A DNA stretch of 64,000 bases from Amphiscolops sp. MND2022. Its lineage: Eukaryota. Each line of letters starts with the position of its first letter. The stretch's first letter is position 1. Positions 27,958 through 60,808 of the stretch are shown here, piece after piece. A program made the position numbers and the translations under genes. The notes under the pieces were generated by a model that saw nothing but the letters and a program-made list of their open reading frames with translations, searched no databases and had not been told where the DNA came from. The stretch spans positions 22,942,001 through 23,006,000 of the forward strand of contig OZ076409.1 of the NCBI GenBank assembly GCA_964187785.1, given 5' to 3'.

Positions 27958-30900
27958 TTATTGAGTCGAAGTCATAGCGTCACGTCGTCGAAAATCAGGA
28001 TTAGCATTAGGTTTCGGGTTAGGTCGTAAGTTGTATTTCGCTGTTTTTCGTGGATTATATCCGACGACTGTAGGCGGTGATTTGGAGGGAATAGGTGGAC
28101 TTTCAGTGGGTGCGGGGCGACGTATATATGGATTATCTTCCACATCTGTGGTAAGATTTGAGGATTCTGGTGACGATGATGTCGCGTCATTTGTATCTTC
28201 GCTTTGATTTTCTGCTTCATTTTGCGCTGCTTTTTCGTCATTTACGTCTATTACTTCCTGTGTTACAGCTTGTTGGTTATTGCTCGTGATATATGTTATG
28301 TTACGTTCATCTATTGGTTTTCCGAAGTCTAGCTCCCAAGAAACTGCATACCATTCGTTGTGCGACACTTTGACGTCCGGATCTGGAAGATATTCGTTTG
28401 ATCGTTCTGTGACGTCAGGCATGCGTTGTACTGGCACGTGAGGACGTATTCTGATTCTATGTAGTGTTTGTGTATATAGTGTGCCTATTTTCCGTATTGT
28501 ATAACTGTTATTTGATAGCACTTTTACCACTATGTACGGTTCTGTCAAGATGCAATCTTGAAATGCAAACTTTGTCGACTGGTTGTCGGCGTTCGGATTG
28601 AGGATATAGCAGTAGTCCTTTATTTTGAGCGGAGCTGCAGACGCTTTACGATAATAGTGTTTTTTGTATTTGGAGTAAGACAGCATGATATTGTCTTTTG
28701 CTGCCGCGCGCACTTCGTCAATTTGTTTTTGCAGCTGGTCGGCTATATCTGAGTTGGTTGTGGTTTTCCATTTTGGAAAGACGCCTACTTTTAAATCAAG
28801 CTTTTTGTAGGGTATTTGTCCGTGGAAAACTGTGGATGGTTTGCAACCTAGGGTTTCGTGATAGGTCGTATTTTAGTTCTTTACTGCAATTTGGACATAT
28901 TTGTGCCACATTGAAAGTCTCTTACCCGTCGATAATATTGAGGCTTTCTTGATAGAGGCATGAGTTTGTTCTAGGATTCCGATTGTATGTGCGTGTTTCG
29001 TAGACGCGTGACTGATTTGGATTTCTAGTATCTGCGTTATTTCTGCGACGACTTCTGATCTGAATTGTTATCCTTTATGCGATAGGATTAGTGTATGTAG
29101 ATTTGCGTGTCTCGTCATGACGTCGAAAAGACATCGTCCAATTGTCTTTGCTGTGGCGTTCTGCGTTGGGTATGCAAATAGATAGCGTGAGAATATATCG
29201 ATCACTGTCACGATGTTCTGATATCCTGCAGAATTCGGCAGATTTGGCAGATTTGGTAGTATGTTGATTTCTAGTATGTCTTCCGATCCCAAGACGTGTT
29301 CTGTATTGTTGATCATTTTTGGTCTGATTTGATTATTACTTATTCTTTTGTATTTGATGCAGTCTTCACATTGTTGTACCCATTGTTTGATTCTTTTTGC
29401 TAATTCAGTGTAGTAGTATTTTGATCTGCATTCTTGGATCATTTTTGTGATTCCTGGGTGTTTTCCCAATTGTCCGTGAATTGCTTTGAGAAGTTCTGTA
29501 ATTAGATGCTCAGGGATTAGTATTTGATGATGCGTGACTTGGCTTAGTATTTAGGCATTAGAATGCCATTTTTGACTATTAGTCTGTTTTCATGGACTAA
29601 GAGACGTTTCGTTAGTTTATAAGAGTGATTGTCATGTTCTTCACAGATCAGTTTTCTTTTGATTGCTTTGAAGACCAGATATGAGACTTTTTCGACTCTG
29701 ATACGTGCGTCTTCTTTGATTGCCTCAAAAGTGTATGATGCTTTATTTATTGGAATTGGGGTCGTTTTTTTGATGGACAGTTTTGTTTCTGTCGTTTCTC
29801 ATCGCGCGCATTCTGTCTTGCTTGTTCTTTTTGCAGTAGGATTTCTTCTTCAGTTTCGATCGTTTCTTTTGAAAGGAAAAAACTTGTTCTTCGTATGCGA
29901 CGTCTGTTGATTGTTGGTTGACTTGTATTGGTCGGATTGTGATGTCATTTTTGATTTTTAGCTCGACTCTTTCTTTAGGGTTGAGGTCGATTCGTGATAG
30001 GAAATTTGCCGCTGTGTTTTGCGTTCCTGCTACGTGCATGACGTAGAAATTGAATTGTAGCTCGTAGTCACATGCGCTCCATGATGTGGGGGGAATCGCC
30101 TTTTTTTAAAAACAAACGTTTTACCGATTGGTTGTCAGTCATTACCAGTGTAGGTAGAGTTGTCTCCCACAATAAATGGCTGTATTTGAGAAATGCATGA
30201 TATATTGCCAAAAACTCTTTACAACCAATTGACATTTTCAGTGGTGCTGGTGAAAACACCTTTGATCCAAATGCGATTTGATCCACATCGTTTTCTTCTT
30301 CAATCATTAGCGCAAATCCTGAGGCGCGGAAAATTGGCGTCCGTCATCAGGACGTATTGGCGTCCTGTGATTGGTTGTTTGAGAGCCAATCCACAAGCTT
30401 CGGCTAATGCTGCGTTGATCGCTTTGTAGTTGTCCAGCAGCTCCTCCGTTACTTTGAATTGTCTGTCTGCTATCAGGAGTTCAAAGAATCCATGCAGTTT
30501 TTCGGACAAACCCGGGATGTAGTTGCGGTAGTAGTTGACGAATCCGACTTATCTTTATACTTGCTTCTTAGATTTCGGGAAACGGACAGTTGCTAGGAAC
30601 TTTTGGATTTTGTGGTCTTGAGGATTATTTCTCGTGGTATGGTTCTTCCAAGAAAATCGACCTCAGTTACTGCGAAATGCCATTTATCGATAGATAGTTT
30701 GAGTCCTGCTTGTCTAATACATTCAAATACAGCTCGAATGTTGCGCATTAGTTGTGTCACAGAATTGGCGGCTCTTCCAATGTCGTCCACGTATTGCGCA
30801 CACTGGTCAGCTTTGATCACTTTGTCTAAGTACACCCAGATAAAACTTGAAAAAGCGGATAGGGCTCTATTTTCTCCTTGCGCTAGTCGTTTGTAGGCAA

Positions 30901-32935
30901 ACGTCCTGCTTGCGAAATTGAAAGCCAGCATTTCTATTGATAGTCGATCTGGCATTTGTAGGCAGTGATATGCCTGAGAGCAGTCTAGTGTGCTAAACAA
31001 CTTTTTACCAGCTAGGTGTTGTGCTGCATCGGATGACAGGGTGCTGACTGGATGATTATTGTTGATGTAATTGTCCGAGATTAGCGCCTTGATTTTTCGT
31101 AGGTCGACAAGTAGTCGCAATTTTCCATTTGGTTTGCGCTGCGCAGAAATGGGGCTTGCGTATTTTGAGAATGTCAGAGTCGCTAATATGCCGTACCTGT
31201 GCATTAGCGCTAATGCGAATGTTAGGTCTTCTTTCAAGTTAATTGGTACCGGTAAGCTTTCTGTATAGATTGGACGTTCATCTTTCGGAGTTAGTTTTAC
31301 ATTAAAGGTGTTGTTTATGCCTATGTCAAGTCGGTGACGCGCGAAAAAATCATTGTATTCAACTATTGTTTGCTCTAGTTGCTTCCTGTCATTTCCTTCA
31401 ATTTGGGAAACTTCCCATTGAAACTTTTGTAGAATTTATTTCCTTGATTCTTGGTCTTTGGTTGGATCTACTTCTTCTTTTTTAATGAGTTCAAGGATTT
31501 CCTTTAAAATTCATCGTTGGATTGGCGTATGCTCTTCTTCATTTCTTGGATTCTCAAGTGTAGGGAACCAAAAATTTTCATTGTTTTGTTCATTCTCACT
31601 GGATTTCATTAGTTCGTTCACATACATGTGAGTATCATCAGGGTCTTGTAATAGTGTCAATGCGGCGGCGTCAATGGGTCGTATCTGTTTCGTATCCTCA
31701 AGTTTGAGTGTTTGGAGTTTTGCCAATTTAGTATGGTTTTTTATTGTGTGAGGGAAGTCTGTCAAATTGGCCATTCTGATGTTTATTCTCTTGTTGTGGG
31801 CTGTTGCTAGTGCTGGAGTGACAATAATGGTACCTGTTTCATCGAATTGTGGTAGTGGTTGTATCGCACCAGTGATGTCATTTGTATTCGTGGTAGTTAC
31901 CATTCCGCTTACTGTTGTTGTTTGTCAGGGTAACAGCGTTTGATTGCTTTCTGCCATTATTTGGAGGGTATTAGGGTTGCAGTTTTTCATTTCGTCTGTC
32001 ATAGTCAACGTCATTTCGACGTGTGGGAAGTTGATGGTTCCGTTGGTTGTGTCTATTACCGCCTGATGGTTTCGCATGAAATTCAGTCCCGTAATGGGAA
32101 AAGACGTCTTTGATAGGATGACAAAGGTATCCGTGAACCTATAGGTCCTATGTTGAATTGTATGTCGGCTGTGGCTATTGGTTGTTCCAGCTGGGCATTT
32201 GCGCATTCTGTTTTGAAAGGAGGTTAGGGATACTCCTTTATGATGCAATTATCGCTGCTCATTTTGATTGCATTGTAATCCGACCACGACATCGCATTGA
32301 TGAAAACTCCTGAGTCGACGAGTCCGTCCATTGTTATTTCGCCAATTCCAAGTGGGAAGTAGAACATTCTACGTCGTTTTTTGAGTATTATAGTCGATTG
32401 TAGAGATATGTAGGTGTCTCCGTCTTTTTCGCCTATGTACTCTTTAATTGAGTTGAGTGATGCGGGGATTTCGTCTGGGAAGATAGGTCTCGTGGTGGTG
32501 CCGTAATTATTTTCCTCAGGTGGTTGTGACGATAGTTGTTCGTCGTTATCGTTTGTGTTCTGGTCCGGCGATGTTGCAATGGGTTGTTGTTCGAATGAGA
32601 AGGTTGACAGATCGTATATATCTGGTCTGTCCCATGGCTCGCATCTATAGTCTTTATCGTATACGTAGATTCGTTCTTGATCTGATTGTGATAGGGGTCT
32701 TTTTGTCGTCTTCTGTTGGTCGTTGGAGTCTTCTATCCAAGTTGGGTATTCCTTTTGTTGTTCGTGTTTGGCGTTATATCTTTTTATGGTGGCGATTGCC
32801 TGTCTTCGCAGCCAGTCCTCAGTTGCTATCCCATTGCATTGTAATTTTGACTCAGTGTTGTGTTTAGTTTGGGGGTCTTCGATTGAGTACGCCGTCGCGT
32901 CTACTGTTTTCCCGAAGCCAGGCTCAGCGTAATCA
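27958..32935 (-). pseudogene. pol: pol of element A (PR, RT, RNase H, integrase), decayed
   Basis: LVDSG protease; LDCSQAY/YVDD RT; MTDAN/KEFLAI/TDNQ RNase H; HPG..CEDC integrase zinc finger; EPYIVVK (GPY/F-like). Confidence 0.93.
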
Positions 32936-34198
32936 GTTTTTTGGTTCATCGGGAGTTTAGATTGTCGTTGGTTGGGCGGAGTTGTCCGTCTTTCGTTCTT
33001 GTTGGTTGTGACGCTTAGGTCGCGGATCGTTGGCAGCATTGGCTCCATTCCAACAATCTTCCGGTTTGTGGGGTTTGCCACAAGTGTCACATATGAGTGT
33101 GGTGCCTGCGCTTTTATTTGGGCCGTTGTGTCTTCAGGTTTGGAGCCACTTATATCTTCTCATCTTCTTACAATCGGCTTTGAAATGGCCGAACTTGTTG
33201 CAATAAAAGCAATATCCGTTTTTGGTGTTCTGAAAATTGTTTTCTGCTGGTTTGGTTTCAGTTTTTGATTGGGCCGGTTCTATTTTGTTGAGTGGAACGA
33301 GAATTACCTCGTCTGGTGCTCCAAGTCCGTTGAGTCTCATTTCTTTTTCCAGTTGAAGCACAATGTCATTATACGGCTTGTCTTCAAGGTATGCCCTATT
33401 GAGTATTTTCTTGACATGGTCGGGCAGTTTGGCGTATATGGCTTTGTCAATGAAATGTTGGGCTTCGGCACCGAAAACTTCTTCAACTGTTTTCTGGATT
33501 TCATCCAAGAATTCATATAATTTTTGTGTTGAGGTGTTAAATCTAAGTGTATCCCATTCACATTGCGCTTTTGCCATCGACAAGTAGTCGCCGAAGCGAC
33601 GTTTAAAAAAAGTCATGATTTCGTCCAACGAGTCGTTTTTGGTGTCATCTATTGTGCAGAACGCTTGTAGGGCGTCTCCTCTGAATAAGGAGTAGAAATC
33701 GTTGATTTTCTAAATTTCCGTGAGATGTGGGTACATCTTGATGTTATTACGCAAGAGATCCTCAAATAGCTCGAATTTCGCTGATTTCCCATCAAAAGTT
33801 GGGAGAGATGCTGTTGAGGTTTTCGGCATGGGTAACGTAGTGCCGTCGTTCCTATCTGTTGCGAAGAGCGTCCTGGCCACTACGGGGCGTTCTTTTGATG
33901 CCGGTTGGCTTGAGACCTTATTTTCGGTCTTAGGTTGAGTGATGGAGTAGTTTAGAACTCATGTCACAATGTTACGACTACTACACGGGTCGTTATTTTG
34001 AGTAGAGTTAATTCTAACTGACTTAGTAGGAGTATAGAAACTTTTGGTTTCGTTTTCAGTATCCTCATCAGGTTCTTCTCTGACATTGGTGTTTGTTTTA
34101 GCTTTAAGCAATTTCAGTATTTCCTTTTGGGAATCTGCTAAAAGACTCTTGAGCTCAGACGGTATTTCATCCTTCAAAGAAGTTTTCAATCTCTTCAA
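32933..34198 (-). pseudogene. gag: gag of element A (begins in the LTR), decayed
   Basis: FFKRRFG..AQCEWDTLRF capsid-like region, CFYCNKFGHFKADC knuckle, and a frame crossing the LTR end (..SRNIVT*). Confidence 0.85.
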
Positions 34199-34850
34199 GA
34201 CACTACTTTCAACTGTGTGGGATTTTGCCCTCGAACGTCCTGGAGAGCCGACGTCCTGGTCAACGGAGATGTTGTTTCCTATTACGATCGGTGAAACTAA
34301 AACTCACTAACACTCTCAGAGCTCTCCTGTTGATTGTGATCACTGATATCTTTATCAAAGTTGAGAAAAATGTTTAAAAGCAAAGAAAATGCAAAGCAGC
34401 TGGATTTCACAAATGAAAAAGACTGAATCCCCTTATCATCATCGCACATTGTATTTATACCCTCCTAGCATGATGTGATCACGATTGAATCCTCGAATTT
34501 CCACAAGTAATTAGTCACTTCCTGTATCTTCGATGAAAAAATTGTTTTGTTCACAATTTTAAGTCGATATTTCGTCAAATTTTGAGACACTACACTTTTA
34601 ACTTAGTATTAGTCATCAAATTTGATCATATCATTTCATCCCGACGTCCTTTTGTTTCCTCCCAAGCAGGAAGTAGTTATTACGTCGGTCTGTCAAACGG
34701 GATATGAATCCCTGTTTTTTTGCGTTGATTCGTAGGAAAATTGACGCTGAGATGACGCTGAGATGACGCTGACATGAATGACTAATACCTGATTTTGAAT
34801 TTTTAATCGAAGAAAAAATGAATATTTCGTTCGCTTGGAATATTTAGAGA
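33970..34850 (-). repeat. Truncated 5' LTR of element A, with degenerate PBS TTGTGACATGAGTT at 33956-33969
   Basis: Similar to 20252-21150. The PBS differs at 2 positions from B's TGGTGACAGGAGTT. Confidence 0.85.
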
Positions 34851-36165: not shown

Positions 36166-36189
36166 TGGTGACCTCGACGTGATGTGAAC
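36166..36189 (+). other. Primer-binding site complementary to tRNA-Trp
   Basis: TGGTGACCTCGACGTGATGTGAAC right after an ..AACA LTR-like end; close to the complement of the eukaryotic tRNA-Trp 3' end (TGGTGACCCCGACGTGAT). Confidence 0.75.
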
Positions 36190-36226
36190 AGCAGAAGGTT
36201 CAGGAAGTGCAGACGGCTCTGGTGGT

Positions 36227-45350: not shown

Positions 45351-47259
45351 TGTGTTGACCGTGATTCGAGAGTAAATCACTTGGTTCAACCGATCTATAC
45401 CTATAATCCGTGTTTCCTGCGTCCTCGTCATCGGGGTCATGACGCACGTTGTTAGGTGGTTTTTCTGCCAGTGTATCAATTTTAGAAGTCAGGTTCTCTA
45501 TCATCTTCAGAATCTCGCGCTGTCCGACTTCTGCGTCTTTGATTCTTTTACTTACAGACTTTTCTATCTTTTCAGATAATTCCGTAAAATCTCTATCAGA
45601 CAAACTAGGTGCGTTTTCAGTTGTCATGCTAGAAGATTCAGGTTCGTCTAAGGAGTTCACAGGGGAATCCCTTCTGGCTTTTCTTTTGGAGCTACGTTCT
45701 GGCATCTTACTTAGGCTTGGTAATTCTCGATTTTCTTTTTAAGGAAATTAGAGCAAGTTCTCAAGTGACAAAGCGTGATGTTTCAAGATTTTTAATTATC
45801 GTTAAACGGAAAATAATTGTTTCGCAAAATAACAAAATTCAACTAAAATGGCTTTTAGCTCCCATTGTATTTATACATTCCATCCCGGAAAGCGGGGAAA
45901 AGACACGAACATACTTCAGATTTTGTTCAGTCCGGCGTCCGTCCGAGGCAGGGAAACAGGAAGTTCAGTTCCGCTTTGTCGAACTCAGGCTTTCAGCTTG
46001 TTCATGCTTTCCGAAGAAAGCACGCGTCCACTTCCTGTCTGAGTTGCGACTCCGCTTCCCTTCGCCTCCAACTTCCCGCCTCTTCAGGACGCCGAACTGA
46101 AAAAACTATCAAAGACACGCGCAATGAGTCATTGAATGAGATTGATTAACTGCACAATATTGGGAAAAAATGATGACAACCAATTTTCCTTTACAAATAT
46201 TTCTCTAAATTAAATAAATCAGCAACAATTTGGATGAAATTTAACACAAATCACACATTAAGTTTTAAATGAAAGAGTAGAATTGCTTCTACAGTATTTA
46301 CGGCTCTGATTTTTGGTTAAGATCACGAAGCCTGGTCCCAGGCCAAAGTCCGGGACGGACAAATTTGTTCAATGAGTAAAGCAACTATTAATTATAAACA
46401 GCATCAGATACATTGTTCAGAAAGGTATTTAATGCAATTAAACGGCAACAGATTCAGGGAACAGGATATACATGTTATTAACACTTGGTTTGATATTCGG
46501 TACTAAATCTTTGGTCCAGGCTGCGGTTCAGGCCTGTTTATAGATTAATCAATATTTACATGTAAAAGAACGTTGTATGCGATATTTTAAACGACGATAT
46601 AGTTCAAGATCATAGATAATAGTCTCTAGATTCATTTCGAGACAAAGTTACATGATAGCATCATCATCTTTCACTTTCGTGATTGATTTATTGTATGTAT
46701 ATCTCAGGCCGCATCCCAGGCCGCGGTACGTGATGTTCTATTAAGTTAGCACAGAAATCTCAATTGTTGGTATATTTGCACTCGTATTGTTAATAAATCA
46801 CTGCACTAGACATTAGTTCATTTACATGTATTCATTATAGCGCGCACTTGTATATTAGTTTGCTGAGTTTACAATTCTCAGGCTGCCTGCCAGGCCGCCG
46901 CTTTAGTGCGAGTATTTGAGGCCGGCTGCGTATTAATCAGTTCCCTCTTTAATTTCTCGGTTCGTTCACTGAGCGGTGCAATTCGATTATTATTATTACA
47001 TAGTATTGTAATATTATTAACTGCACGAATAGCTCCGTTATTCCGTAAGTACGTATTTATATAAGTGTACATTATTATGATAATAATACTACTATGCATA
47101 TATTTATTTATTTACCTTCAAATTTATATTGTTTAACTCTTTTGTTTCTGATTGTTTGTCAGCTGTCTATTTCCTCTTCTTTTGTTCTTTTCCCAATTTA
47201 TTCTTCGAAGACTGGGTTGTGTTTGTTGCAATACTCGCAGCTCAGACGGGGCTGTGACA
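45351..47259 (-). repeat. 3' LTR of element B (1909 bp)
   Basis: Direct repeat of 58902-60808; contains a second copy of the Gag N-terminus (ORF 45262-45705 reads out into the flank). Confidence 0.97.
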
Positions 47260-47782
47260 GTCCTCGGCTTCTGTACCCAGTTCCCTCAGGAAGGAGAAAT
47301 TGGGAAATTGATCGAATCGGGGTCTCAAATAGCGTTGGGAGATCGTCAGTTAAGGAATTGTAGGATCGCCAAGATGAGTCTGTCTCCCAATCGCTTCCCG
47401 AATAGTACCCTTCTGAGCTACTGTAGAAACTTATTGGGCTATCAACGTTGTAGTCGGGATTATCGTAAATTTCACGGTCGAATTGCCTGACCGGACTCAC
47501 AAATGTGTCTTCGGGGATCACTGGGTTGTCTTGCGTGAAACGTCTGATGACTCCCGTCTCGCTTTCTGTGCTCGTGGTATCGGCCGGCGCTTCTTCATGT
47601 ACTAGGACTACGTGGTAGTCCTGTGTTTTAATGATTTCATAAGTAATGTTAATTTGCCGCGTGGTAATTAGGTTATAATCTGGTGGCAGTGTACCTGCTC
47701 TTTGTTCGGGCTGCTGCTGTTGATCTCGTTCGAGAATGAAGACGTCTTCGTCCATTTTGCTGCTTGAATTTGGATGATTCAT
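47198..47782 (-). CDS. Acidic accessory ORF of element B running into the 3' LTR
   Basis: Intact 194 aa; the last 62 nt (LSQPRLSCEYC...) lie inside the LTR. Confidence 0.65.
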   Translation of the reverse strand: MNHPNSSSKMDEDVFILERDQQQQPEQRAGTLPPDYNLITTRQINITYEIIKTQDYHVVLVHEEAPADTTSTESETGVIRRFTQDNPVIPEDTFVSPVRQFDREIYDNPDYNVDSPISFYSSSEGYYSGSDWETDSSWRSYNSLTDDLPTLFETPIRSISQFLLPEGTGYRSRGLSQPRLSCEYCNKHNPVFEE

Positions 47783-48001
47783 TGTAGTAGTAAACTAAGC
47801 GTCAGTCAATTTTTAGTACAACTGATTTGCTTCGCTTGGAAAATTTGTTCACACGGTTTGTGTCAACTCCATGAATTGTTCAGCTGGCAGACTGAACAAC
47901 TCTCCTTATATAGTAAATAACTTTTGATAGTAGAAATTTCCTTGCTTTACGCCACATCTTCTTTGATTTTATGCTGGTTGTTGTTTTTAGATTGTTTGAA
48001 A

Positions 48002-51000
48002 ATGAGTTCAACTGAAGCTGAAAATGTTGTCTTGAGTCAAAGTCGGGCCGTCGGATTGAAGGAGAGCGAGGCCGAGGTCGAGTCTGTGGTAGAGCCTGTC
48101 GCGCAAGGTGAGCGGACAGTGGTTGCTTCTGACGAGGTACAAGGTGGAGAGGCTGGGGATGCAGCTAATGAAGAGCCCGTGGGTCCTGGATTTAAAGAGA
48201 AGGGCAGTTCGAGTGAGGACGGTGAAAGCTGCGCTGAGACGGAATCGTACCATTCAGCAACGAGTGACGGTCGTCATGATCTCAACTACCTAGCGGACAA
48301 GAAAGGTAGGCTTTCTAGAAATTAAATGGTGGCCAGCCTTTCTAGGGTTTGTTGAACGCGTTCTTTTACTTCTACTTTCACAGTGACTGATGATGAGCTT
48401 GACGAAGATTATGCCCCTAGTTTGTCTACGAGGTCGCAGAGCAAGAAGAAATCACGGTCCAGTCGGGTGCTTTCAACGAGTAGTGCGAAGCCTTCTAAGC
48501 GTGTGCGTTTGGCTGACGTGATTTCTGGAGCGATTCCCAAGCCTCCTATGATGGGCGACAGTTCTGGGGGAGATTTTGAACCCGCAACAATTTCTGCATC
48601 CAAAACACTTGCAAGTAGGTAATCTTTCTCTTTCTTGTCTCTATGAAGTTTTCTTCGGGTTTTCATTTGTGGTTGTAGGGTCTACATTCCACTTCTGTAT
48701 ACTTCATATTCGCTTTTGTTGTACTTGCCGATCCTTATCCTGGTCTGGGGGATTGCTCCGATCCAGAAAATGATGTGTTTGCTGTTGAGGCTGCAGTTGG
48801 GACGCCGGCCCCAGAAAGCGACGCGTTGTCGGTGTTGCCTGAAGGTCTTTCTCGTCAGACACGGACACAGCACAATCGTCCAGCTGTGGGGCTCGAGCCT
48901 TCAGTGGTCCATAATGAGTGGGAGAGAGGCACAGTTTTTAAGTTTCTGTTGTACAGTGTTGCTCATTGTAGTTATGTCGTAGGTTCGTTGTATTCCGTTA
49001 TGTAGTGTGTCTTGATTTGGTGAATGGGGTTGTTAACGTGTATTGTGATATTTTAGTTGGTCTGAAGTCTGTTCCTCCGGGTTCCCCCATGGTGATGACG
49101 GCAGCTCAATGCGTCATTCTTGCGCGGAGTGCGGCCCGGGCAGAGCGCCGTGAAACTTTAAAGGAGACCAAGACCTTGGCGAAGCGTAAGTAGTAGTGTG
49201 TCTTGTTGATTGTTTTTCCTGTCATCTGATTTCTATTATTTCTGGCTGTATTTTGTATTGTATTGCTTTGTTTATTACTTGCCGACTGTGTCTGTATTCT
49301 TCTGTTCTGCTTGTATTCTGATTGTTGTAAAGGTGTGTGATGTTTAGAATTTGAAGAATTATCACAGTTACTGAAGTCGAGGGGCATCGATGCAGAGGAC
49401 CCTGGTTGGGTCATGGATCCATTGGAGGCCAAGAAGGAAAAGTTGCTGGCGCGAGATGAGGAGCGCCCCAAGAAGCAGTCCGAGCGACATGTATTGACCA
49501 AAGCCATGAGCAATCACCCAATCCCGAAGTTGTTTGTGAGTCGGAGGAGCGACAAAGGGCCGAACGGTTTCAATTGTTCGATCTGTCAAAAGGACGTGTC
49601 CTTTTTATCGCGTGGGCCACGGGGTATCTGGAGACACTTTAAGTGTAAAGGACACTATGCCAAGGATCGCCGTTATCGCTACGATCATGATGAGATGATC
49701 TTTACTGAGAAATTTGATGCCATTCCCGTTGTCGAATTGACGGTGGAACATCGTGCTGAAATTGAGCAGACTCCGCCTGTGGTGTTGGGCAAGATGAACA
49801 AGTTTTTGGAAGACGAAGTTGACGCGCTGGTCAGTGTTCCATCCAACGTGCCTCCGACTACCCTTGTAGGCTGTCTGTTCGAATTGCTGCGGAGTGGTGG
49901 GTCACAGGTGTTTCTCCGTCGTATTTGGAATCAGTTCCGAACGACCCTGCCTGTGGAAAGTCCCTATGCTTCAGTGACCTGGAGCAAGACAGAAACGTTG
50001 GTCGTCCTTGTTCAGACCCTCTATCCTCGGGTGTTACGTCGTGTAAAGTCATGGCTTGGGGACGGCCCATTCAGTTTGGCGTTGCATAGTTCTTACTCCG
50101 GTGTGAAGTGCATCGTCCGTTGCTGCCCCGGTGACTCTTTGCGTGAAGTGCACCTTGTGGATGAAGATCCGAGGGATGTAGCTTGTGGGGCGGAGGTACA
50201 GTGTCTGGCCCGTGCTCTGTCGCTAGTCTCAACTCGGCGGGGGCCCGCTGCTATTCTGGGTTGCTCTCCTGTGCTTTTTAACGCCTATGTGGACTGGTGT
50301 CGCTCAGTGGGTCGGCCTTCTCCTATCGTGGCTATTTCGTTTACTGGAGATGTATTGCGTCGACTTGTAGGTGAATCCAGCTTGGCGTGTGTGGGTGCAG
50401 TCGATCCTTTTGCTACTGTAGATTACCTGGCTCACCGTCTCATGAGGATCCGCAGTCAGGCGTGGTTGCTGGATCTGCCCAAATTCCGCATGTGTCTGGA
50501 AACTGGAGTCGTGCCCTTCGCCTCATTGTGTGATGTGCTGCAAGAATTGTTAGATCACTGGCCTGATGTGAAGCTCAGTTTGTCAAATGACGTTTTCGTG
50601 ATGAAGAAGGTTGCGAATGTTGTGGACCTAGATTCCTTGCTTTGTTCTGATCGCTTGGGTCTCCCTCGCTTGTCGCTATTACATGTGGTGTTGCTGTGCT
50701 TTCGCGCCAACTTCAAGAGACTGTTTGACTCTGGTGCAAAGGATTATGCCTGTAGGAACTATTCCGACTTTTGCTTCTTCTATTGGAGCCTTTTAAGTGA
50801 GCCAGGTGTTCTAAAGGCATTGCGGGGTTTCGAGGACACTCCCCGGCGGGCCTTCCTTCGCGAATGCCAGAGCTATTTGTTGGAATTGTTGAAGCAGTTG
50901 GGGTCTTCTGCCTATGCCAGTTCTCGGGTCGCCCGTTCCCTTAGTTGTCTTAGCGTGGACATGCTCTTGGGTGGCGATGCTGATTATGTAGTGGAATTAT

Positions 51001-51695
51001 TTCAAGAACTGGTTACATGTCTTCAAGAAGCTGGCTACCTTGATAATGTGGATCGCGAGTCGTCGGTGAATGAGTTTAAGTCACTAGTAAAGGATCTTCG
51101 TCAGTTATCAGCAGATTCATCGCAGATTGTTGATGTGTTTGAGTATTTGGAGTCTGTGCATAGCTACCAGTGTCGGATACATGTGAAAGAAGTCGTTCAT
51201 TTGGTTCGTGTTGTTGTGTGTCCTGCTCCTGAGCCCATGCCTCCGGTCGATGTTTCATTCAGTGGGACTCAATTGCCTCCTTCTGTTATCCGTTCCGGTC
51301 TGTATGCAGTTCAGTCATTCGTGGTTCATCCGAAATTTATGTCGAACGATTTGTTGACTGTGGAGTGTCTCGCTGAATTGAAAGCTAACTTGCCCGTTGG
51401 ACATCAATTTTTAGCGCGCAGTTCATTTGATCCTTGGGCTGGGGTCAGTCGCCATTCCAGTGAGGAGATTTTTGCAAGCCTGTTTGGCTGTTATACTGCA
51501 TACTATAATGGACAAGTTGAGGAGTGGAGGATACGGACGTCAGGTCAGTCGGCTCGTCGAGGATGCTCTGGTTCCATTGTTGCTGATGGCGCCTCGTCCA
51601 CTGCTGTTGCTGAGAGTGGATCCGATGTTCCTGGGACGTCTTCTCAAAGTCAGAAAGGGAGTAAGAAGAGTCAGAAGCACGGGAAATCTTGCTGA
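48002..51695 (+). CDS. Antisense spliced BED/hAT-like gene of element B (5' exons partly uncertain; last exon 49348-51695)
   Basis: Phase-compatible GT-AG introns 48306-48383 and 49186-49347; acceptor at 47990 before the ATG; FNCSICQKDVSF..GIWRHFKCKGH BED motif; 760-aa open frame. Confidence 0.85.
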
Positions 51696-52029: not shown

Positions 52030-55000
52030 TTAACTTTCTGATCTCGGACTGCCGTCTGGGCCGCGGTCCGTCAAAACCTGTAATTCTGGGCCGTTGTCCA
52101 GTCCGTCGGAAGAATATGCCAAGTTTGTTGAATTGGCTGTTAGGGCAATGTAATAGGCATAATCTGGTTTCCAATTTGACGTCGGGTTATTTCGAAGGTT
52201 GTAGTGGGATTTCCGGGGGGATTGAGGTGCGGGTGTATTATTTTCGGGTTCATCATCGGTATCGATTAGTGGGTCCTGTGTCTGGTCACTTGGGTGGTTA
52301 GGAATGATTTCGGGGTCGTATACTAGGTTAGGGCTTGGGGAGCCGGGGTCATTGATTGTTTCTGGGGTTGGTTGGATCACTTCAGGTTCGGGTAATTGTT
52401 TGTTTTCGGGTTGGTTAGGGCATTCTTTGTAAAGTTCTTCCCACGCCATTGCGAAGAGGTCGTCGTGCTGTATGGCTACCTCTGTATCCTGCTGGAAGTC
52501 CTTGGGTGGGACTGTAATGTCAGGCAGCTTGTGGCTGCTTGCGAAGGGGCGTAGCCTGATTCTGTGCAGGATCTGTGTGAAATTCGTATGGAGTTTGCGT
52601 ATAAGATAGTTGTTGTTGGGTAGGGTTTTGACCACGATATATGGTCCCGTCCAAAGGTATTCCCGAAACGGCAATTTCGTCGCTTGGCTATGCGCCTTTG
52701 GATGCAAAGCATAGCAGTAGTCGTTTACTACCAAGGGGTGTGCTGATGCTTTCCGGTCATAATAACGCTTATGTCGGACGTAGGCTTGCATCAGGGCTTG
52801 TTGGCTCTGGTTGAGGATTTCTTGTGTTTGTTGTAACACTCCCTCAGCTATTTCGTGGTTGGTTGGGGCAGTGGCCTGGGGTTTAAGGCCGTACTTTAGG
52901 TCGAGTACGTTGTATGGCACTCTTCCATGGAAAACTCGGCTGGGTTCGCAGCCTAATGATGTGTGGTAGGAAGTGTTGTAATTTAAGACTGCCATTGGTA
53001 AGAATTGGTGCCACATCGTTCGCCTCTCTCCTGTCATGATTTTTAGGCTTTCTTTGAGCGAGGCGTGTGTCCTTTCTAGGATGCCTATCGTCTGGGCATG
53101 TTTGGTGGTGGCATGTTTCAGTTGGATTCCGAGAATGGCTGTTGTTTGTTGCATTGCCTCCGATATGAACTGGGATCCTTTGTCCGTGATTATCGTTGTG
53201 GGGAGATAGCAGTGTCTTGTGATGATATCTGTAAGGACCCGTGTGACAGTCTTGGTGTCGATTCTGGCGACGCTATACGCGAATAGATAACGGGAGAATA
53301 CATCCATCGCTGTGATGACTGCAGTGTATCCTCCCGAAGGGTCGTCGAAGGGGACGATGTCCATTTGTAGTGCGTCTTCTGGGCCCATTTCTATTTTGGA
53401 CATGTCGATGAGCGGGGGTGTAATGTTGGCATTTGGTATCCTTTTCGTCTGAGCGCATTCTGGGCATTGTGCAATGTGGGTGGCTATTCGGGCGGCTAGC
53501 CCCGGGAAGTAGTACTTTTCGCGGCATTGCTGGATGGTTTTAGCTATACCTGGATGTTTCCCGAATTTGCCATGATGGTGTTGTATGAATTCATCAACCA
53601 GTTGATGGGGGAGTAGTACTTGCAAGTACTTGACTTTCCCTGTATCGCCAAAATATTGTCGATACAGGAGTCCATCTTTTATGATGATGCGGTCATCTTG
53701 TGTGAGGTATTTGGCCGCTCTGGGGTCGTCGTTCAGAAGTTGGGTGTCGTACGGTTCTTTTAGGATTTTCAGTTTGAGGTTTCTGAGGACGGGGTCCTGG
53801 TCTTGGTACGGTCTCAGACTGCGCGGGAAGCTTGTGTCACTGTGAAGTTGGCGCCGCTGTTCTTGCTCTGGGTCTTGGATGTTATTGCAGACCAAGGGTA
53901 GATTCTCGGGTTGGGAGATGGTTTGGGCAGTTTCACTCTTGGGGTCGGAGTTCTGTTCATGGGGTGTGTAGATCTGTTTTCTGGCTTGTTGTTTACGCTC
54001 CCAAATGTCTTCTTCGGTCTCAGTGTCGTCCTCTGGTAAAAAATAGAACTGATTTTCTTCATGGATGTCGGAGGATTGTATGTTTACCTGGATCGGCGTT
54101 GTTTGAATGTCTTCTCTGATTTGGAGAAGGACTTTTTCTTTGGGGCTAATGTCTAATCGGGAGAGGAAATCGGCTGCTGTATTCACCCTTCCCGGCACAT
54201 GGGCGATTTTAAAGTGAAATTGCAGTACAAAATCGCAGGCATTCCAGAGGGAGGGTGGTATCATCTTGGTTTGAAAAAACCTGGTGACTGATTTATTGTC
54301 GGTTAAGACAAGGGTCGGTTTGGATGAACCCCACAAGATGTGACTATATTCCATAAAAGCGAAATAGATGACTAAAAATTCTTTGGCATAGATTGACATC
54401 TTCAACTGGGATGGTGAAAAAGTTTTAGAGCCAAATGCCACTGGAGCGTAAGTGTTCCTGGTGGATGTGATCTTTTGCTCCGGGTCTTCTTCAGTCATCA
54501 AGGCATATCCGGCATTCCTGAAGCTTGCGTCTGTCATTAGTACGTACTGCCGGTTTGGCAGTGACTGTTTGAGCCAAAGGCCGCATGCGTTTTCTAACGA
54601 TTTGTTGATAGCTTCGAAAATGGATATGAGTTCCTGATCTATCTTTACTGGCTTGTCTGATTTGATGAGTTCATGAAATGGGGCGATCTTTTCTGATAAT
54701 CGGGAAATGTAGTTTCTGTAGTAGTTTACAAAGCCGATGTATCTTTGAAGTCCCTTCTTCGTCCGGGGGAATTTGATGGTCTGAAGGTGTTTCTGGATCT
54801 TGTGGCTTTGGGGTGCCACCCCTGCTGGGGAAATTGTTCGCCCAAGGAATTCGACTTCCTTGGCGCCGAACTGACATTTGGCCATGAAGAGCTGGAGTCC
54901 TGCTGCGCGGATGCATTGGAAAACCTCTCTCAAGTTGTTCTTTAACTCCTCGGGAGTGTTGGTGGCGATTCCAATGTCATCCACGTACTGAGCGCATTTG

Positions 55001-57766
55001 CCCGCCTTTATGGCCTTGTCGAGGTATTCCCTCATGAAACTTGAAAAGGACGACAATGAGCGGCTCAGGCCTTGGGCTGCTGGCGAAGTTGAATGCTAGA
55101 AGTTGAACGGACTTCTGGTCTGCCATTTGCAGCACGTGGTAGGCTTGTGAACAATCAAGCTTGCAAAACAACTTCCTACCGGCGAGGTGTTGCGCCGCGT
55201 CTGTTAGTGTGCTCACTGGATGATTGTTGTTAATGTAATCATCAGATATCAGATTGTTGATTTTTCTGAGGTCGACTAGTAGGCGCAGGCGGCCGTTTGG
55301 CTTCCGTTGGGCGAAAATGGGGCTGGCATACTTGCTGAACGTGAGCGTGGTTTTAATCCCGAAGTAATGCATTAGGGCCAATTCGACCGTCAGATCTTCT
55401 TTCAGGTTAATGGGGCAGGGCAAACTCTGTGAGTAGACGGGGTCGTCTGTTTTCGGTGTGAGTTTGATTTTGAAATCATGGTTGATTCCAATGTCCAGTC
55501 GATGCCTTGCAAAGATGTAGTTGAACTCTATGAGTATTTCTTCGATGTCTTTCTTGTCATCTTCGGAGAGTTGTGAATCGTCCCATTTGAAGTTTTGGAG
55601 GAATGTTTTTCGTTCCTCTTCGCTGTTGTTTGGGTCGAGTTTCTGGATTTCTTCCAGTTCTTTGATTTCTCGGAGAATTCGGTTCTGGATCGGGGTGTGG
55701 GTAGCAGGGTCTCCGGGGTGGTCTGGTGTGGGAAACCAAAAGTTTTGATTGTGAGATGGTTTTTCTGGGGTTTTCAGGAGCTCGTTGATGTATACCATCG
55801 CATCTTCGGAGTCGTCTTCGGCGAGCACTTTGAGTGCTGCTGTGTTGAGTGGTTTGAGTTCTTTTGCCTCTTCGGGGGACAGGATTTTGAATTCTGCTAT
55901 TGTTGTGTTTCGTATGATGGTATAGGGTGTAGGGGTGGTATTTGTTACTCTGATGTCGATTTTTCGGTTTGAGGCTGTTGAGATTGAACTGGCTACCACG
56001 AGGGGGTCGCCACTGCAGTGGTTGGTGGCTGGGTTGATGACACCGGTTGTGTCGACGTTGGATGGTATATCTGTGGAGCCTGTTACTGTTTGTGTCGTTT
56101 CAGGGGGAATAGTGAGTGGATTCTTTATTTGTACTTTGTACAGTTTCCTGTTAAGGGTATATTCATCGGTTTCGATTGAATATGTGAGGTGGGGGAAGTG
56201 TAGCAGGCCCTGGCTCACGTCCAGGATGGCGCTGGTATTTTTAAGGAACGTGAGGCCAAGTATTGGGCCTGTCAGTCGTTTGGCTACGATAAATGTTTCC
56301 TTAAAGTTCCAGTCTCCGATTTCGAATTGGAGGATGATTGTTTTGGTGGGCGTTTCAATGTCGCCATTTGCGACTTGGAGTTTGAAAGGGGTGGTTCCAA
56401 CTCTTTAACTATGTCTTTGGGGGACATTTGGAGGATTTTATTGTAATCGGTTTCGGAGATGCAGTTTACAAGGGCGCCAGAGTCAATAAGGGCGTCCAGG
56501 GTCAAGTCCTGGAAGTCCATGGGGGCGAAGAGCATTTTGTTCTTCTTTTTGAGGGATACTGCTGAAAAGATTGGTATGCACTCTTCTTTTGTTATGGGGT
56601 CTCTCGTGAGGTATTCCGCAATCTGGGCCAGGGGGTAGGACTGGGGTTCGTCCTGGGGTGGTATGTCGTTTACAACACCGGTGGGGGATCCAGATTGTGT
56701 AATAGTTGCGGCAGGGTTGAGGGGTCGAGGCTCCTCGACTTCGTTTCCGGTCTGCCTACTGGAGAGAGAGTTGGGAACGTTGATTTCTCTGACTGGACTT
56801 TTGTTGTTCCTCTGATTTTCTGCAGTCTGCTCAGGGGGGGTAGGACCTGGGAACGTCCTGTTGCGGTGTGCCGTTTGCAGCACCTGATGGGAATTCAGAC
56901 TGCATGTTGGTTGCGTCAGCTATGATGTGTCGATCGGTGTCGATTTCATCTTCTAGCTGACTATTGAGGATAGTGGGTGAGAGCTGTGTCTCGTATTGAA
57001 CGGAGGGTTCTAGGAGAAGGGATCTCTTTTTTCGTTTGGTTTTTGGTTTGGAGATGTTTGTCGCCGAATTGGGTGTAGGTGGGGCCAGGTCCACGGCTTC
57101 GATCGTGGTCCTGTCGGTGAGGTTTCTATGTTGGTGGCTGTCTGGTGCCACGTCCATTGTTGGGGATCGTATGATACCGGCTCTGATAGGGTTTATTGGC
57201 TGGTCTTTTGGTGGAGAATGGGGAGCCGTGGTATAGGATCCCTGGTTCTTGAGTATAGGTTTGACGTTGTTCTGTGAGATATCAACTAGGATTTCTGTCA
57301 CGTGTTCGGCGTCCTGGTTGTAGTCTGGGATAGGTTGAACGGTTTTGGACCTGTGACGTGGTTCGGTGGAAATATTCATCCCTGTTTTTCTGATGTACTC
57401 TTCAAATGGCGTGCATTCCTGCTGTTTGAACGTTAGGGTCGTCTTGTCATACAGTTGAGGGTTGTAGTATGGGTCGCAGTTGAAGTCAGAGTCGTGGAAG
57501 TAGGTTTCAGGGGAAGTGCTTTCTGTTAGGGGTCGTTTAGGAGTATTGTAAGCAGTCGGGTTGTCTAGGTACCACTGAGGATAGTCTTTCTTCGCAGTGT
57601 TTTGGCGATTATATTTGTGGAGCTTGTGAATCTGCCATCTTCGCTGCCAGTCGAGAGATGGTTCTTCATGTCGCTCGGTGTTCCTTTCGTAGTCATAGGA
57701 GTTTGGGGGTTCGGATGTTGTGTACTGTCGGGTTTCGACAGTGTCCCCAAATCGAAGATGTGGCAT
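52030..57766 (-). CDS. pol: pol of element B: unknown domain, aspartic protease, dUTPase-like spacer, RT, RNase H, integrase, GPY/F; three frame disruptions
   Basis: LIDSGA; LDCSQAY; YVDD; MTDAS/KEFL/TDNKS; HHGKFGKHPG..CPEC; MDIV/TDKGSQF/ILER; WTGPY. Breaks near 56835, 56390 and 55078. Confidence 0.95.
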
Positions 57767-57768
57767 AT

Positions 57769-59256
57769 TTAGTTTTTTGATTGGCTGAGCTCCTGGGTTT
57801 GGTTTTGAGGTTGAGTGGTCTGCGGGAGCATGGGTTGGTAGCCCGTTTGGCTATTCGTTTGGTTGTTATATGGGTGTTGATGTACTGGTGTGTTGTCTGG
57901 GGGGTACTGACCTTGTGTATTCTGTGGCAGCGGGATGTTATTCGGTGAAGTTGCTTTAGGGGTCTTCCACCATTGGGGTCTGTTTGCCCAGTTGGCGCCA
58001 GAATAACATTCCTGTGTCGTATGGCTCTTTTTGCCGCAGGTTTCACATGGGTTTGTTATTTTAGTCGGTGCCCTATTGCCTCGGTTGCGGGCTTCTCGAG
58101 CAGTTTTCCGGCAGTTCTTTATTACATGGCCTGGGTAGCCACATCCGAAACACGGGCCTGCTGGTTTGGGCGGATTGGCGGTTTGTTGTGGGGCATCTTG
58201 TACATCGATTTGGTGTACTCCTGTTATGTTGGTTTCGCTTGGGGCCAGGAGTCCGTTTAACTCCATTTCACGCTCCAGGTGTTGGACCATCAGTTCGTAC
58301 GACTCTGTCTCTAGTCTTGCCTGGTTAAGGACTGGTTTTAAGTGCGCTGGCATTTTTGCAAAGAATGAGGTTTCTATGAACTTTGGGGCGTCGTCGCCAT
58401 ATGCCTCTTGTGCCAATTTCTGGTATTGCTCCAGGAAGTCTTGGAAGGTTTGGCGAGTTGGGTCGAAGTAAAGCTGTTCCCACTTACATCTTGCGGTGGC
58501 TATAGATTGTGGGCGAACGTATCGTCTTCGGAATGTGGTAATGATGTCGTCTAAACTGGCGCGGTTTGCGTCTGTCATATTGCGATACGTCTGTAGGGCA
58601 TCGCCTCTCAGGAGGGAGTGGAAGTAGTGAATTTGCTCTTCCTCTGAGATATTTGGATATACTTTGAGGCTCGTCATAAACAGGTCCTCGAAGTGCTCGA
58701 ATTTGTCATTGCGGCCATCAAATGTGGGCATGGTTGTTGAGAGTGCCTTCGGGAGTCTGGGCAGTCCCGCGCTCTGTTGTGTGGCATTCTTCAGGGATTC
58801 GAGCAATTTGTTCACGATATCGTCTGGATATCTCATGTTGGGCGGGGGTAGACTTGATGATCGGGTGGGTATGTCCTGGGTTGTGGTAACTCCTGTCACC
58901 ATGTGATGACCGTGATTCGGGAGTAAATCACTTGGTTCAACCGATCTATACCTATAATCCGTGTTTCCTGCGTCCTCGTCATCGGGGTCATGACGCACGT
59001 TGTTAGGTGGTTTTTCTGCCAGTGTATCAATTTTAGAAGTCAGGTTCTCTATCATCTTCAGAATCTCGCGCTGTCCGACTTCTGCGTCTTTGATTCTTTT
59101 ACTTACAGACTTTTCTATCTTTTCAGATAATTCCGTAAAATCTCTATCAGACAAACTAGGAGCGTTTTCAGTACTCATGCTAGAAGATTCAGGTTCGTCT
59201 AAGGAGTTCACAGGGGAATCCCTTCTGGCTTTTCTTTTGGAGCTACGTTCTGGCAT
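57769..59256 (-). CDS. gag: Gag of element B (495 aa), initiating inside the 5' LTR
   Basis: MPTFDG..LRGDALQ capsid-like region; two CCHC knuckles (CFGCGYPGHVIKNC, CETCGKKSHTTQEC). Confidence 0.95.
   Translation of the reverse strand: MPERSSKRKARRDSPVNSLDEPESSSMSTENAPSLSDRDFTELSEKIEKSVSKRIKDAEVGQREILKMIENLTSKIDTLAEKPPNNVRHDPDDEDAGNTDYRYRSVEPSDLLPNHGHHMVTGVTTTQDIPTRSSSLPPPNMRYPDDIVNKLLESLKNATQQSAGLPRLPKALSTTMPTFDGRNDKFEHFEDLFMTSLKVYPNISEEEQIHYFHSLLRGDALQTYRNMTDANRASLDDIITTFRRRYVRPQSIATARCKWEQLYFDPTRQTFQDFLEQYQKLAQEAYGDDAPKFIETSFFAKMPAHLKPVLNQARLETESYELMVQHLEREMELNGLLAPSETNITGVHQIDVQDAPQQTANPPKPAGPCFGCGYPGHVIKNCRKTAREARNRGNRAPTKITNPCETCGKKSHTTQECYSGANWANRPQWWKTPKATSPNNIPLPQNTQGQYPPDNTPVHQHPYNNQTNSQTGYQPMLPQTTQPQNQTQELSQSKN
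57772..57778 (-). promoter_or_regulatory. -1 ribosomal frameshift slippery site A AAA AAC at the gag/pol junction
   Basis: TCA AAA AAC TAA; the -1 frame continues L-N-M-P-H-L-R-F into ORF 56831-57766. The same heptamer plus stop occurs in A at 32936-32942. Confidence 0.8.
58888..58901 (-). other. Primer-binding site of element B (TGGTGACAGGAGTT; tRNA-Leu-like, identity tentative)
   Basis: TGG directly follows the LTR's CA and resembles the Leu-type PBS TGGTGTCAGGAGT; it also encodes Gag M-V-T-G-V. Confidence 0.7.
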
Positions 59257-60808
59257 CTTACTTAGGCTTGGTAATTCTCGATTTTCTTTTTAAGGAAATT
59301 AGAGCAAGTTCACAAGTGACAAAGCGTGATGTTTCAAGATTTTTAATTATCGTTAAACGGAAAATAATTGTTTCGCAAAATAACAAAATTCAACTAAAAT
59401 GGCTTTTGCTCCCATTGTATTTATACTTTCCATCCCGGAAAGCGGGGAAAAGACACGAATATACTTCACATTTTGTTCAGTCCGGCGTCCGTCCGAGGCA
59501 GGGAAACAGGAAGTTCAGTTCCGCTTTGTCGAACTCAGGCTTTCAGCTTGTTCATGCTTTCCGAAGAAAGCACGCGTCCACTTCCGGTCTGAGTTGCGAC
59601 TCCGCTTCCCTTCGCCTCCAACTTCCCGCCTCTTCAGGACGCCGAACTGAAAAAACTATCAAAGACACGCGCAATGAGTCATTGAATGAGATTGATTAAC
59701 TGCACAAATTTGGGAAAAAACGATGACAACCAATTTTCCTTTACAAATATTTCTCTAAATTAAATAAATCAGCAACAATTTGGATGAAATTTAACACGAA
59801 TCACACATTAAGTTTTAAATGAAAGAGTAGATTTGCTTCTACAGTATTTACGGCTCTGATTTTTGGTTAAGATCACGAAGCCTGGTCCCAGGCCATAGTC
59901 CGGGACGGACAAATTTGTTCAATGAGTAAAGCAACTATTAATTATAAACAGCATCAGATACATTGTTCAGAAAGGTATTTAATGCAATTAAACGGCAACA
60001 GATTCAGGGAACAGGATATACATGTTATTAACACTTGGTTTGATATTCGGTACTAAATCTTTGGTCCAGGCTGCGGTTCAGGCCTGTTTATAGATTAATC
60101 AATATTTACATGTAAAAGAACGTTGTATGCGATATTTTAAACGACGAAATAGTTTAAGATCATAGATAATAATCTCTAGATTCATTTCGAGACAAAGTTA
60201 CATGACAGCATCATCATCTTTCACTTTCGTGATTGATTTATTGTATGTATATCTCAGGCCGCATCCCAGGCCGCGGTACGTGATGTTCTATTAAGTTAGC
60301 ACAGAAATCTCAATTGTTGGTATATTTGCACTCGTATTGTTAATAAATCACTGCACTAGACATTAGTTCATTTACATGTATTCATTATAGCGCGCACTTG
60401 TATATTAGTTTGCTGAGTTTACAATTCTCAGGCTGCCTGCCAGGCCGCCGCTTTAGTGCGAGTATTTGAGGCCGGCTGCCAGGCCTCAGTTCCGTCTTTA
60501 ATTTCTCGGTTCGTTCACTGAGCGGTGCAATTCGATTATTATTATTACATAGTATTGTATTATTATTAACTGCACGAATAGCTCCGTTATTCCGTAAGTA
60601 CGTATTTATATAAGTGTACATTATTATGATAATAATACTACTATGCATATATTTATTTATTCACCTTCAATTTTATATTGTTTAACTCTTTTGTTTCTGA
60701 TTGTTTGTCAGCTGTCTATTTCCTCTTCTTTTGTTCTTTTCCCAATTTATTCTTCGAAGACTGGGTTGTGTTTGTTGCAATACTCGCAGCTCAGGCGGGG
60801 CTGTGGCA
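58902..60808 (-). repeat. 5' LTR of element B (1907 bp)
   Basis: Direct repeat of 45351-47259. Confidence 0.97.
59419..59425 (-). promoter_or_regulatory. Candidate LTR TATA box (TATAAAT), ~165 bp upstream of the gag ATG
   Basis: Similarly placed TATA elements occur in the LTRs of A (34453-34459) and C (7426-7434). Confidence 0.5.

Follow-up and report, generated by a model that had tools for sequence, protein, structure and literature searches.

A very probable accessory gene that runs into the 3' long terminal repeat of related Ty3/Gypsy elements in Amphiscolops sp.

Introduction

In lentiviruses, nef is the last sense open reading frame (ORF) and overlaps both the polypurine tract (PPT) and the U3 region of the 3' long terminal repeat (LTR). 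Here we describe sense ORFs in a comparable position in three Ty3/Gypsy elements, called A, B and C, that lie in a 64,000-nucleotide (nt) stretch of DNA from Amphiscolops sp. MND2022 (GenBank assembly GCA_964187785.1, contig OZ076409.1, positions 22,942,001 to 23,006,000 of the forward strand), referred to below as the window. A likeness to nef had been raised in an initial annotation of the window. It holds for position, as the last sense ORF over the PPT and U3 (seen in B and probable in A and C), and fails for family. The window proteins start with MN, MS and MN rather than Met-Gly and gave no Pfam or PDB match, nor a fold match for C, whose model is mostly of low confidence, and the elements that encode them are Ty3/Gypsy retrotransposons without env.

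Chromoviruses of CRM group A are likewise Ty3/Gypsy elements in which a coding region crosses the PPT into the 3' LTR (PMC3059260). In the available text of that report, the overlap is the C-terminus of integrase (the CR motif, thought to serve integration-site tethering) within a polyprotein, and the PPT is highly conserved. In the window elements, by contrast, the frame belongs to an independent ORF that lies 4 kb beyond the end of pol, and the PPT position is degenerate in A and B. We rejected the possibility that the ORF is an extension of integrase, as pol of element B stops at 52030 while the sense ORF starts at 47782.

For LTR elements, additional ORFs in both sense and antisense orientation are on record in plants, fungi and rotifers (PMC7264820, PMC11963269, PMC5408684). 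Grande gene23, RIRE2 and Retand likewise have a long stretch between pol and the LTR that holds an antisense gene together with sense ORFs other than env (PMC7264820, PMC11963269), and Grande gene23 is described as having its own promoter and a nuclear product (PMC7264820). These Ty3/Gypsy elements are from plants or fungi, and the portions of the two papers that were available describe no sense ORF running into U3. The window elements also differ from them in having an antisense protein that looks hAT/BED-like and a sense protein without a known domain. Genes at the 3' end that are expressed from promoters outside the LTR, as proposed here, are described for foamy viruses (tas/bel2; PMC3798896) and for env of the Oikopleura Tor elements (PMC4402516). 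There is no sequence link between these and the window elements, the Env of Tor belongs to the membrane proteins, the accessible parts of both sources describe no antisense partner placed head-to-head, and the internal promoter in the window elements is a prediction.

Accessory genes of retrotransposons are known to be easily overlooked, and plants account for most of the cases described. The accessible text of an acoel genome paper reports abundant LTR elements without such detail (PMC9911081). Our literature search found no description of a separate sense ORF that ends in U3 and lies head-to-head with an antisense gene; most subscription journals, Repbase, GyDB and supplements were outside its coverage. 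Precedents are known for extra ORFs and for reading through into U3, and the layout and proteins of A, B and C were not found described.

Results

The sense ORF is very probably a real element-encoded gene that is kept by selection on replicating elements. All three ORFs are where the initial annotation had placed them (Table 1) and are acidic, as it had said (Asp plus Glu 17, 19 and 14%, Lys plus Arg 8, 11 and 10% in B, A and C). None of 2000 base-shuffles of each region yielded an equally long ORF. The frame of C is indeed open from the annotated ATG at 5617; family alignments place the conserved start, most likely the true one, 68 codons later at 5821. Preservation in other copies had been named beforehand as what a gene predicts, and protein searches found relatives that keep length and junction for each ORF: 50 of 93 candidates for B (46-94% identity), 25 of 354 for A (40-100% identity, with the window's own protein among the 25) and 76 of 1881 for C (26-96% identity). 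A profile of 40 C sequences reached 474 representatives at E<=0.001 and 236 at 1e-10. In four large clusters (128, 163, 74 and 136 members), the protein was full length in 13, 10, 14 and 12 of 15 among the members listed. Copies of the accessory protein number in the hundreds, counted as proteins without element context. The alignments used below consist of near-full-length picks (29 of the 50 B proteins, 39 of the 76 C proteins and 18 of the 25 A proteins), and a deep C alignment holds 44 of 222 C-type proteins.

Open frames of equal length persist in these families at 26-65% protein identity. If the ORFs had drifted neutrally to 62, 45 and 45% identity, the probability of meeting no stop codon would be approximately 0.009, 0.0001 and 0.0008. 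Differences between copies are also biased by codon position. In one contig compared with the C ORF, codon position 3 accounted for 9 of the 11 differences among those listed (P=0.0014). The JGI metagenome contig L001 carries, at 555-1289, a whole 244-amino-acid (aa) ORF of the C family that is 44% identical in the core and has both the start-proximal motif (IYLSSDESE) and the G-V-S-Q junction codons found in that family. C and L001 differ at 36, 22 and 56 sites in codon positions 1, 2 and 3 over 85 codons, in a protein-guided alignment that partly favours this pattern. L001 (1310 nt, which leaves no room for an LTR or gag-pol context) was the one stretch confirmed among 291 in metagenome contigs, and a viral contig collection gave 79 pattern matches to C-family relatives with none confirmed.

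These results agree with the initial annotation in its proposal of a conserved accessory gene, with the support coming from conservation across families and from codon-position bias. Its own two arguments, a shared phase (below) and an intact copy in the decayed element A, are weak. The A copy is not intact: a frameshift lies about 10 codons into the LTR, and the tail typical of the family sits in another frame. The junction motif is present in 17 of the 25 A-family proteins, and 11 of these 17 extend 33-35 aa past the Ser, compared with 13 aa in the window copy. The open frame of A is also no sign of retention. A gag-pol has 9 stops and 4 frame changes per approximately 1316 aligned codons (about 1 break per 100 codons), and at this rate the probability of at most one break in 240 codons is approximately 0.32. 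The copy also carries a break.

The sense ORF appears, with good confidence, to read through the PPT position and to end 19-35 codons into U3, with the first bases of the LTR serving both as the integration end and as codons for x-S-Q and conserved cysteines; this is seen directly in B and is deduced for A and C. The reading frame that had been described, with (L/V)-S-Q across the TG that begins the LTR, is present in all three elements, and the LTR start is proven in B only. The junction motif is TGTCACAG in B and A and TGTCCCAG in C. Its codons, cTG TCA CAG in B and A and gTG TCC CAG in C, read L-S-Q, L-S-Q and V-S-Q and are placed 62, 44 and 89 nt ahead of the ORF ends. In A, the junction is the sole TGTCACAG in the element and is nearly complementary to the LTR end GTAAC(A). 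In C, it directly follows AGGGGGAG, a good PPT. A public sequencing run (share 0.05) compared with 600-9000 of C covered 12 of 30 bins, without joints or piled ends, and did not settle the LTR start. A loose end in that run at 6562 goes on in the ORF frame as a diverged relative of the ORF, and is therefore no marker of the start of the LTR.

The claim that the ORF crosses a PPT needs qualification, as a canonical tract abuts the TG only in C and the position is degenerate in B and A. The 15 nt preceding the TG contain 11 (B), 8 (A) and 9 (C) purines. This suggests that plus-strand priming can tolerate a PPT position that is bent to suit a reading frame.

The part of the ORF inside the LTR is conserved in the families. 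Of the B proteins, 31 of 50 carry the junction motif, as do 17 of 25 in A, 51 of 76 in C and 55 of 146 among further C-type proteins; many of the others are fragments. Tails typically extend 19-23 (B), 33-35 (A) and 27-30 (C) residues past the junction and have cysteines a few residues after S-Q in 23 of 50 B, 10 of 25 A and 123 of 222 C-type proteins. In the deep C alignment, the best conserved block is residues 251-262, encoded by the first twelve codons on the LTR side (0.78, compared with 0.25-0.55 elsewhere). Such a peak is as expected if these codons were under double constraint. C and L001 differ by three synonymous changes in the first eight of these codons, and the varying base of TGTC(A/C/G)CAG is the wobble position of the Ser codon.

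By sequence comparison, A, B and C are clearly related large Ty3/Gypsy elements, with common ancestry indicated by their homologous antisense genes and by the phase of gag at the other end of the LTR. They share the layout LTR - gag - pol - antisense gene - short divergent gap - sense accessory ORF - LTR. Element B (minus strand) is complete in outline, element A (minus strand) is older, and only the 3' end of element C (plus strand) is in the window. The Ty3/Gypsy hallmarks in B are two LTRs with TG..CA ends (98% alike, with 1875 matches and 31 mismatches), a 5-nt target duplication (GTAGC) on both flanks and a sequence like a primer-binding site (PBS). They are partly present in A, in which the 3' LTR and the 5' LTR remnant have 828 matches and 51 mismatches over their common part. 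In B, Pfam identified the pol order of Gypsy elements (RVT_1, RT_RNaseH, Integrase_H2C2 and rve, after gag matches), and A gave the same order by tblastn. A scan of the viral contig collection with B pol gave 7 pattern matches and no confirmed relatives. gag opens inside the LTR, with approximately 118 codons there in B. In both B and A it then reads across the LTR end and the PBS in one common phase, and C is consistent with this. Repeats in the window point to an invertebrate host, and the gag starts may resemble those of acoel elements. With gag starting and the sense ORF ending within the LTR, both ends of the LTR are coding. A literature search on gag crossing the LTR end in frame turned up no paper.

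The antisense genes of all three elements are large, probably spliced and mutually homologous (tblastn E 1e-12 to 2e-15; searches of A in Table 1) and encode a CxxC..H..H finger. ESM features of the antisense protein point to hAT/DUF4371/ZBED5-FAM200 (0.93, 163 of 256 features), which we take as a lead only, and Pfam gave no hAT, DUF4371 or ZBED match. The gene may be a captured DNA-transposase derivative. The gap between the antisense gene and the sense ORF has promoter-like sequences in each element: in B, TATATA approximately 130 nt ahead of the sense ATG, together with an acceptor-like AG site 101 nt ahead of it; in A, two 77-nt repeats bearing TGACGTCA at 23331-23524, upstream of the sense ORF; and in C, four reversed CCAAT boxes in a gap of 1.2 kb.

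The sense protein is predicted to be soluble, acidic and mostly disordered, with short linear motifs (a core like that of a SUMO-interacting motif [SIM] with an SS-acidic run, and [DE][ST]PxS); in C it would also have a small domain composed of a CxxC and two helices. Close to the N-terminus, 47 of 76 C proteins and 12 of 25 A proteins carry SIM-like motifs (e.g., VICISSDDD and LVDISSEEE), compared with 0.3 and 0.2 in shuffles. In the available part of the source, a SIM is defined as a four-residue hydrophobic core adjoining an acidic/Ser stretch (PMC12751080), and the motif of C and A matches that definition as a sequence pattern. [DE][ST]PxS is found in 20 of 25 A, 17 of 50 B and 119 of 222 C-type proteins, compared with 1.3, 2.0 and 5.8 in shuffles. 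The 279-aa protein of C has four well-conserved cysteines (135, 196, 199 and 257), the last of them encoded past the putative LTR edge, and these could form a zinc site. In the structural model of C, confidence is mostly low (mean pLDDT 60.7), with two confident helices (203-217 and 225-241) after the CxxC. An Env or Env-like protein was ruled out: none of the 151 family proteins has a 19-residue hydropathy mean >1.6, and these proteins have no hydrophobic or membrane segment.

Searches for known relatives of the protein gave no assignment. Pfam has no family for any of the three ORFs, and the deep C alignment matched 12 scattered weak Pfam families, each in at most 2 of 45 members, none of them a Nef model. 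There was no match in a PDB sequence search at E<=10, none with Foldseek for the C model against PDB and BFVD at E<=0.001, and no usable match in the ESM Atlas for C 120-279. A wide VIA structure search of the C model gave a best Z of 4.7, to generic helical pairs. The structure searches used the C model only, and their blanks do not show a new fold.

Discussion

The best overall explanation, which we hold with modest confidence, is that the sense ORF encodes an ancestral, largely disordered nuclear accessory protein that would be made from a subgenomic RNA and ends in U3. Several observations weigh against it. The protein searches cover only called ORFs of 0.55-1.75 times the query length, leaving broken copies uncounted. 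Relatives come without DNA flanks, such that their placement in elements is deduced, and many may stem from one genome. The third-position result comes from a single contig at depth 2, with only the listed differences counted. The LTR starts of A and C are putative, set at the junction motif. In B and A, the 5' LTR has donor-like GT(A/G)AG sites just ahead of gag, which favour splicing over an internal promoter. Profile-profile comparison (hhalign) between the A, B and C families gave probabilities <1%, and scores with hidden Markov models (HMMs) across families were low (13.8 bits for C versus A, 13.0 for A versus C and 9.4 for C versus B). The strict SIM-like pattern is found in 0 of 50 B proteins, which have just an EDVFILD-type stretch (35 of 50). 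Finally, the motif counts include close relatives, and the patterns were derived from the alignments themselves.

Expression of the sense ORF requires an RNA other than an extension of gag-pol. With an antisense gene of approximately 4 kb between pol and the sense ORF, the ORF cannot be reached as an extension of gag-pol from genomic RNA, and a subgenomic RNA is needed. Such an RNA would most likely start in the gap shared head-to-head with the antisense gene and end in the 3' LTR. The promoter-like sequences of the gaps fit a shared divergent promoter, for which Grande gene23, Tor env and the foamy viruses are precedents, and we regard transcription from a promoter in the gap as an evenly balanced proposition. 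Alternatively, the gene could be real and expressed as env is, from a 5' LTR RNA in which splicing joins a donor just ahead of the gag ATG to an acceptor upstream of the sense ORF, thereby skipping gag-pol and the antisense gene. B and A each have one donor-like site between the TATA box and gag (TAA/GTAAGA, adjoining the ATG, in B and TTA/GTGAGT in A), the acceptor-like AG of B sits in an 11-mer common to C (0.14 expected), and third ORFs of LTR elements are typically spliced, according to the available text of one study (PMC5408684). However, there is no such donor in the range tested of the C LTR, the 3' LTR of A differs at that site, no acceptor in the A gap passed the filter, and the intron would span approximately 11 kb. 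The antisense gene, moreover, must in any case have a promoter within the head-to-head gap or past it. Based on these results, we consider splicing possible and doubtful.

The three ORF families are not demonstrably homologous at the level of sequence. There was no tblastn match among the three ORFs, in line with the initial statement that they share little sequence. Each of the three HMM scores given above was higher than all 20 of its local shuffles; in the remaining three directions the controls were not exceeded. The C-versus-A match begins at the N-terminal hydrophobic-plus-SS-acidic motif. The ORFs might be unrelated genes, independently acquired, that each run into U3, with L/V-S-Q merely what the conserved LTR end yields when one of the three open frames is read. 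No profile match between families is significant, short acidic and SP-rich motifs arise easily, and the identical phase, which is observed as originally described, is a weak argument for a common gene, with a chance of 1/9 if the ORFs are independent; once the phase is given, L/V-S-Q follows from the fixed LTR terminus. On the other hand, the ORFs agree in where they lie and which way they face, in size class, in partner gene and in the order of their motifs, and the weak scores between A and C beat controls and are anchored at the SIM-like motif. Independent acquisition therefore seems rather unlikely to us. The simplest, and probable, origin of the common phase is a single overlap in the ancestor of a fast-evolving gene rather than three captures.

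SUMO is central to transposon silencing in animals. Together with the SIM-like motif, this leads us to propose, tentatively, that the protein would act as an adaptor in the nucleus, where it would bind host chromatin factors that are SUMO-modified or phospho-regulated and switch the element on or blunt its silencing. The adaptor might act together with the antisense protein, and the gene may help the element to regulate itself or to evade host silencing. VANC of the VANDAL DNA transposons, an element-encoded factor acting on host silencing according to the available text (PMC13547354), is a possible functional analogy; VANDALs are DNA transposons of plants, and for the window protein an anti-silencing role is a prediction. 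Rather than regulating transcription or silencing, the protein could be a structural or targeting factor that acts in particle assembly, nuclear import or integration-site tethering. In CRM group A, a putative targeting domain is placed in the frame that overlaps the LTR, as far as the accessible text goes (PMC3059260), and the CxxC and helical hairpin could form an interaction module. This role seems improbable to us, given the approximately 4 kb between integrase and the sense ORF, an acidic charge that speaks against direct binding to nucleic acid, and the lack of a transmembrane segment.

It is very unlikely that the ORF is not protein-coding and is kept open by a cis-acting RNA or DNA constraint near the PPT and U3, or because the copies are young and undecayed. 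Although the conservation peak sits at the LTR terminus and the B LTRs are 98% alike, frames of equal length stay open at 26-65% protein identity and the excess of third-position differences is found far upstream of the junction as well as across it.

The sense accessory proteins are high-copy, deeply conserved and without known relatives, form a fixed cassette with an antisense gene, and take their C-terminus from the integration end of the LTR. Should the interpretation of the SUMO motif be true, the gene would give an LTR element a handle on SUMO-dependent silencing, a testable case of transposon counter-defence in an animal. A more speculative and rather improbable extension is that the elements represent an animal Ty3/Gypsy clade with a regulatory cassette like that of complex retroviruses. 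A bidirectional internal promoter would drive a captured DNA-binding gene of hAT/BED type in one direction and a SUMO-binding accessory protein in the opposite direction, and the two products would work as a pair in sequence-specific anti-silencing or transactivation, with both LTR ends coding (the accessory cysteines in U3 and the gag N-terminus in U5).

Coordinates and other features of the window

Table 1. Features of elements A, B and C in the window (positions from the first nucleotide of the 64,000-nt stretch)
Feature	Position	Strand	Remarks
Element B sense accessory ORF	47198..47782	-	194 aa; last 62 nt within 3' LTR
Element A sense accessory ORF	22443..23129	-	228 aa; frameshift near 22455-22460 leads to premature end
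Element C sense accessory ORF	5821..6660	+	Conserved part 279 aa; in-frame ATG at 5617 would give 347 aa; last 89 nt past TGTCCCAG at 6572
PPT position of B	47260..47274	-	11/15 purines; read Y-R-S-R-G-L; no pure purine run
B head-to-head gap	47783..48002	.	220 nt between sense ATG and antisense ATG; candidate bidirectional promoter
A upstream gap	23130..23830	.	3 TGACGTCA and 4 CCAAT boxes; candidate internal promoter
Element B antisense gene	48003..51695	+	Probably spliced, exon structure predicted; last ORF 49413-51695 (760 aa) with CxxC..H..H finger
Element A antisense gene	24560..27222	+	Decayed; matched by the antisense proteins of B and C in tblastn (E 2e-15 and 7e-8)
Element C antisense gene	614..4600	-	ORFs 4600-2750 and 1786-614
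Element B 5' LTR	58902..60808	-	Preceded by GTAGC; followed by PBS-like TGGTGACAGG
Element B 3' LTR	45351..47259	-	TG..CA ends, then target duplication GTAGC
Element B gag-pol (gag, RT, RNase H, integrase)	52030..59256	-	Several frames; gag ATG 59256 within 5' LTR
Element A 3' LTR	20253..22486	-	3' end from match to 5' LTR remnant; 5' start putative
Element A decayed gag-pol and 5' LTR remnant	27958..34850	-	5' LTR remnant 33970-34850
Element C putative 3' LTR	6572..8131	+	Both ends putative, based on AGGGGGAG ahead of the TG, the gag start at 7582 and a TTACA terminus assumed from A and B
gag portions inside LTR	59256-58902, 45705-45351 (B); 7582-8131 (C); ~34250-33970 (A)		

Several other features were observed in or near the elements. 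A PBS-like sequence, TGGTGACAGGAGTT, is present in B at 58901-58888 (minus strand), with a variant in A at 33969-33956 (minus strand). The primer may be a Leu-like tRNA, and there is no tRNA gene in the 64-kb window to match the PBS against. Between gag and protease, B (56834-57850, minus strand) and A (32227-33159, minus strand) have a Pro/Thr-rich frame of 310-340 codons without a Pfam match. The 5' LTR of A is cut at approximately 34850 by a decayed stretch bearing reverse transcriptase (RT) at 34850-37400 (RVT_1, E 0.005), and this interrupting stretch carries a DUF1759 gag piece on the opposite strand at 36565-36900 (E 1e-20).

Away from the accessory genes, an ORF of 184 aa at 17119-17673 (minus strand) looks by eye like a fragment of a hAT-type transposase and has no Pfam match. 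The window also contains arrays of an 11-nt unit at 10771-12199, a 522-nt tandem duplication at 41588-42602 and a near-perfect palindrome of 100 nt at 42396-42495.

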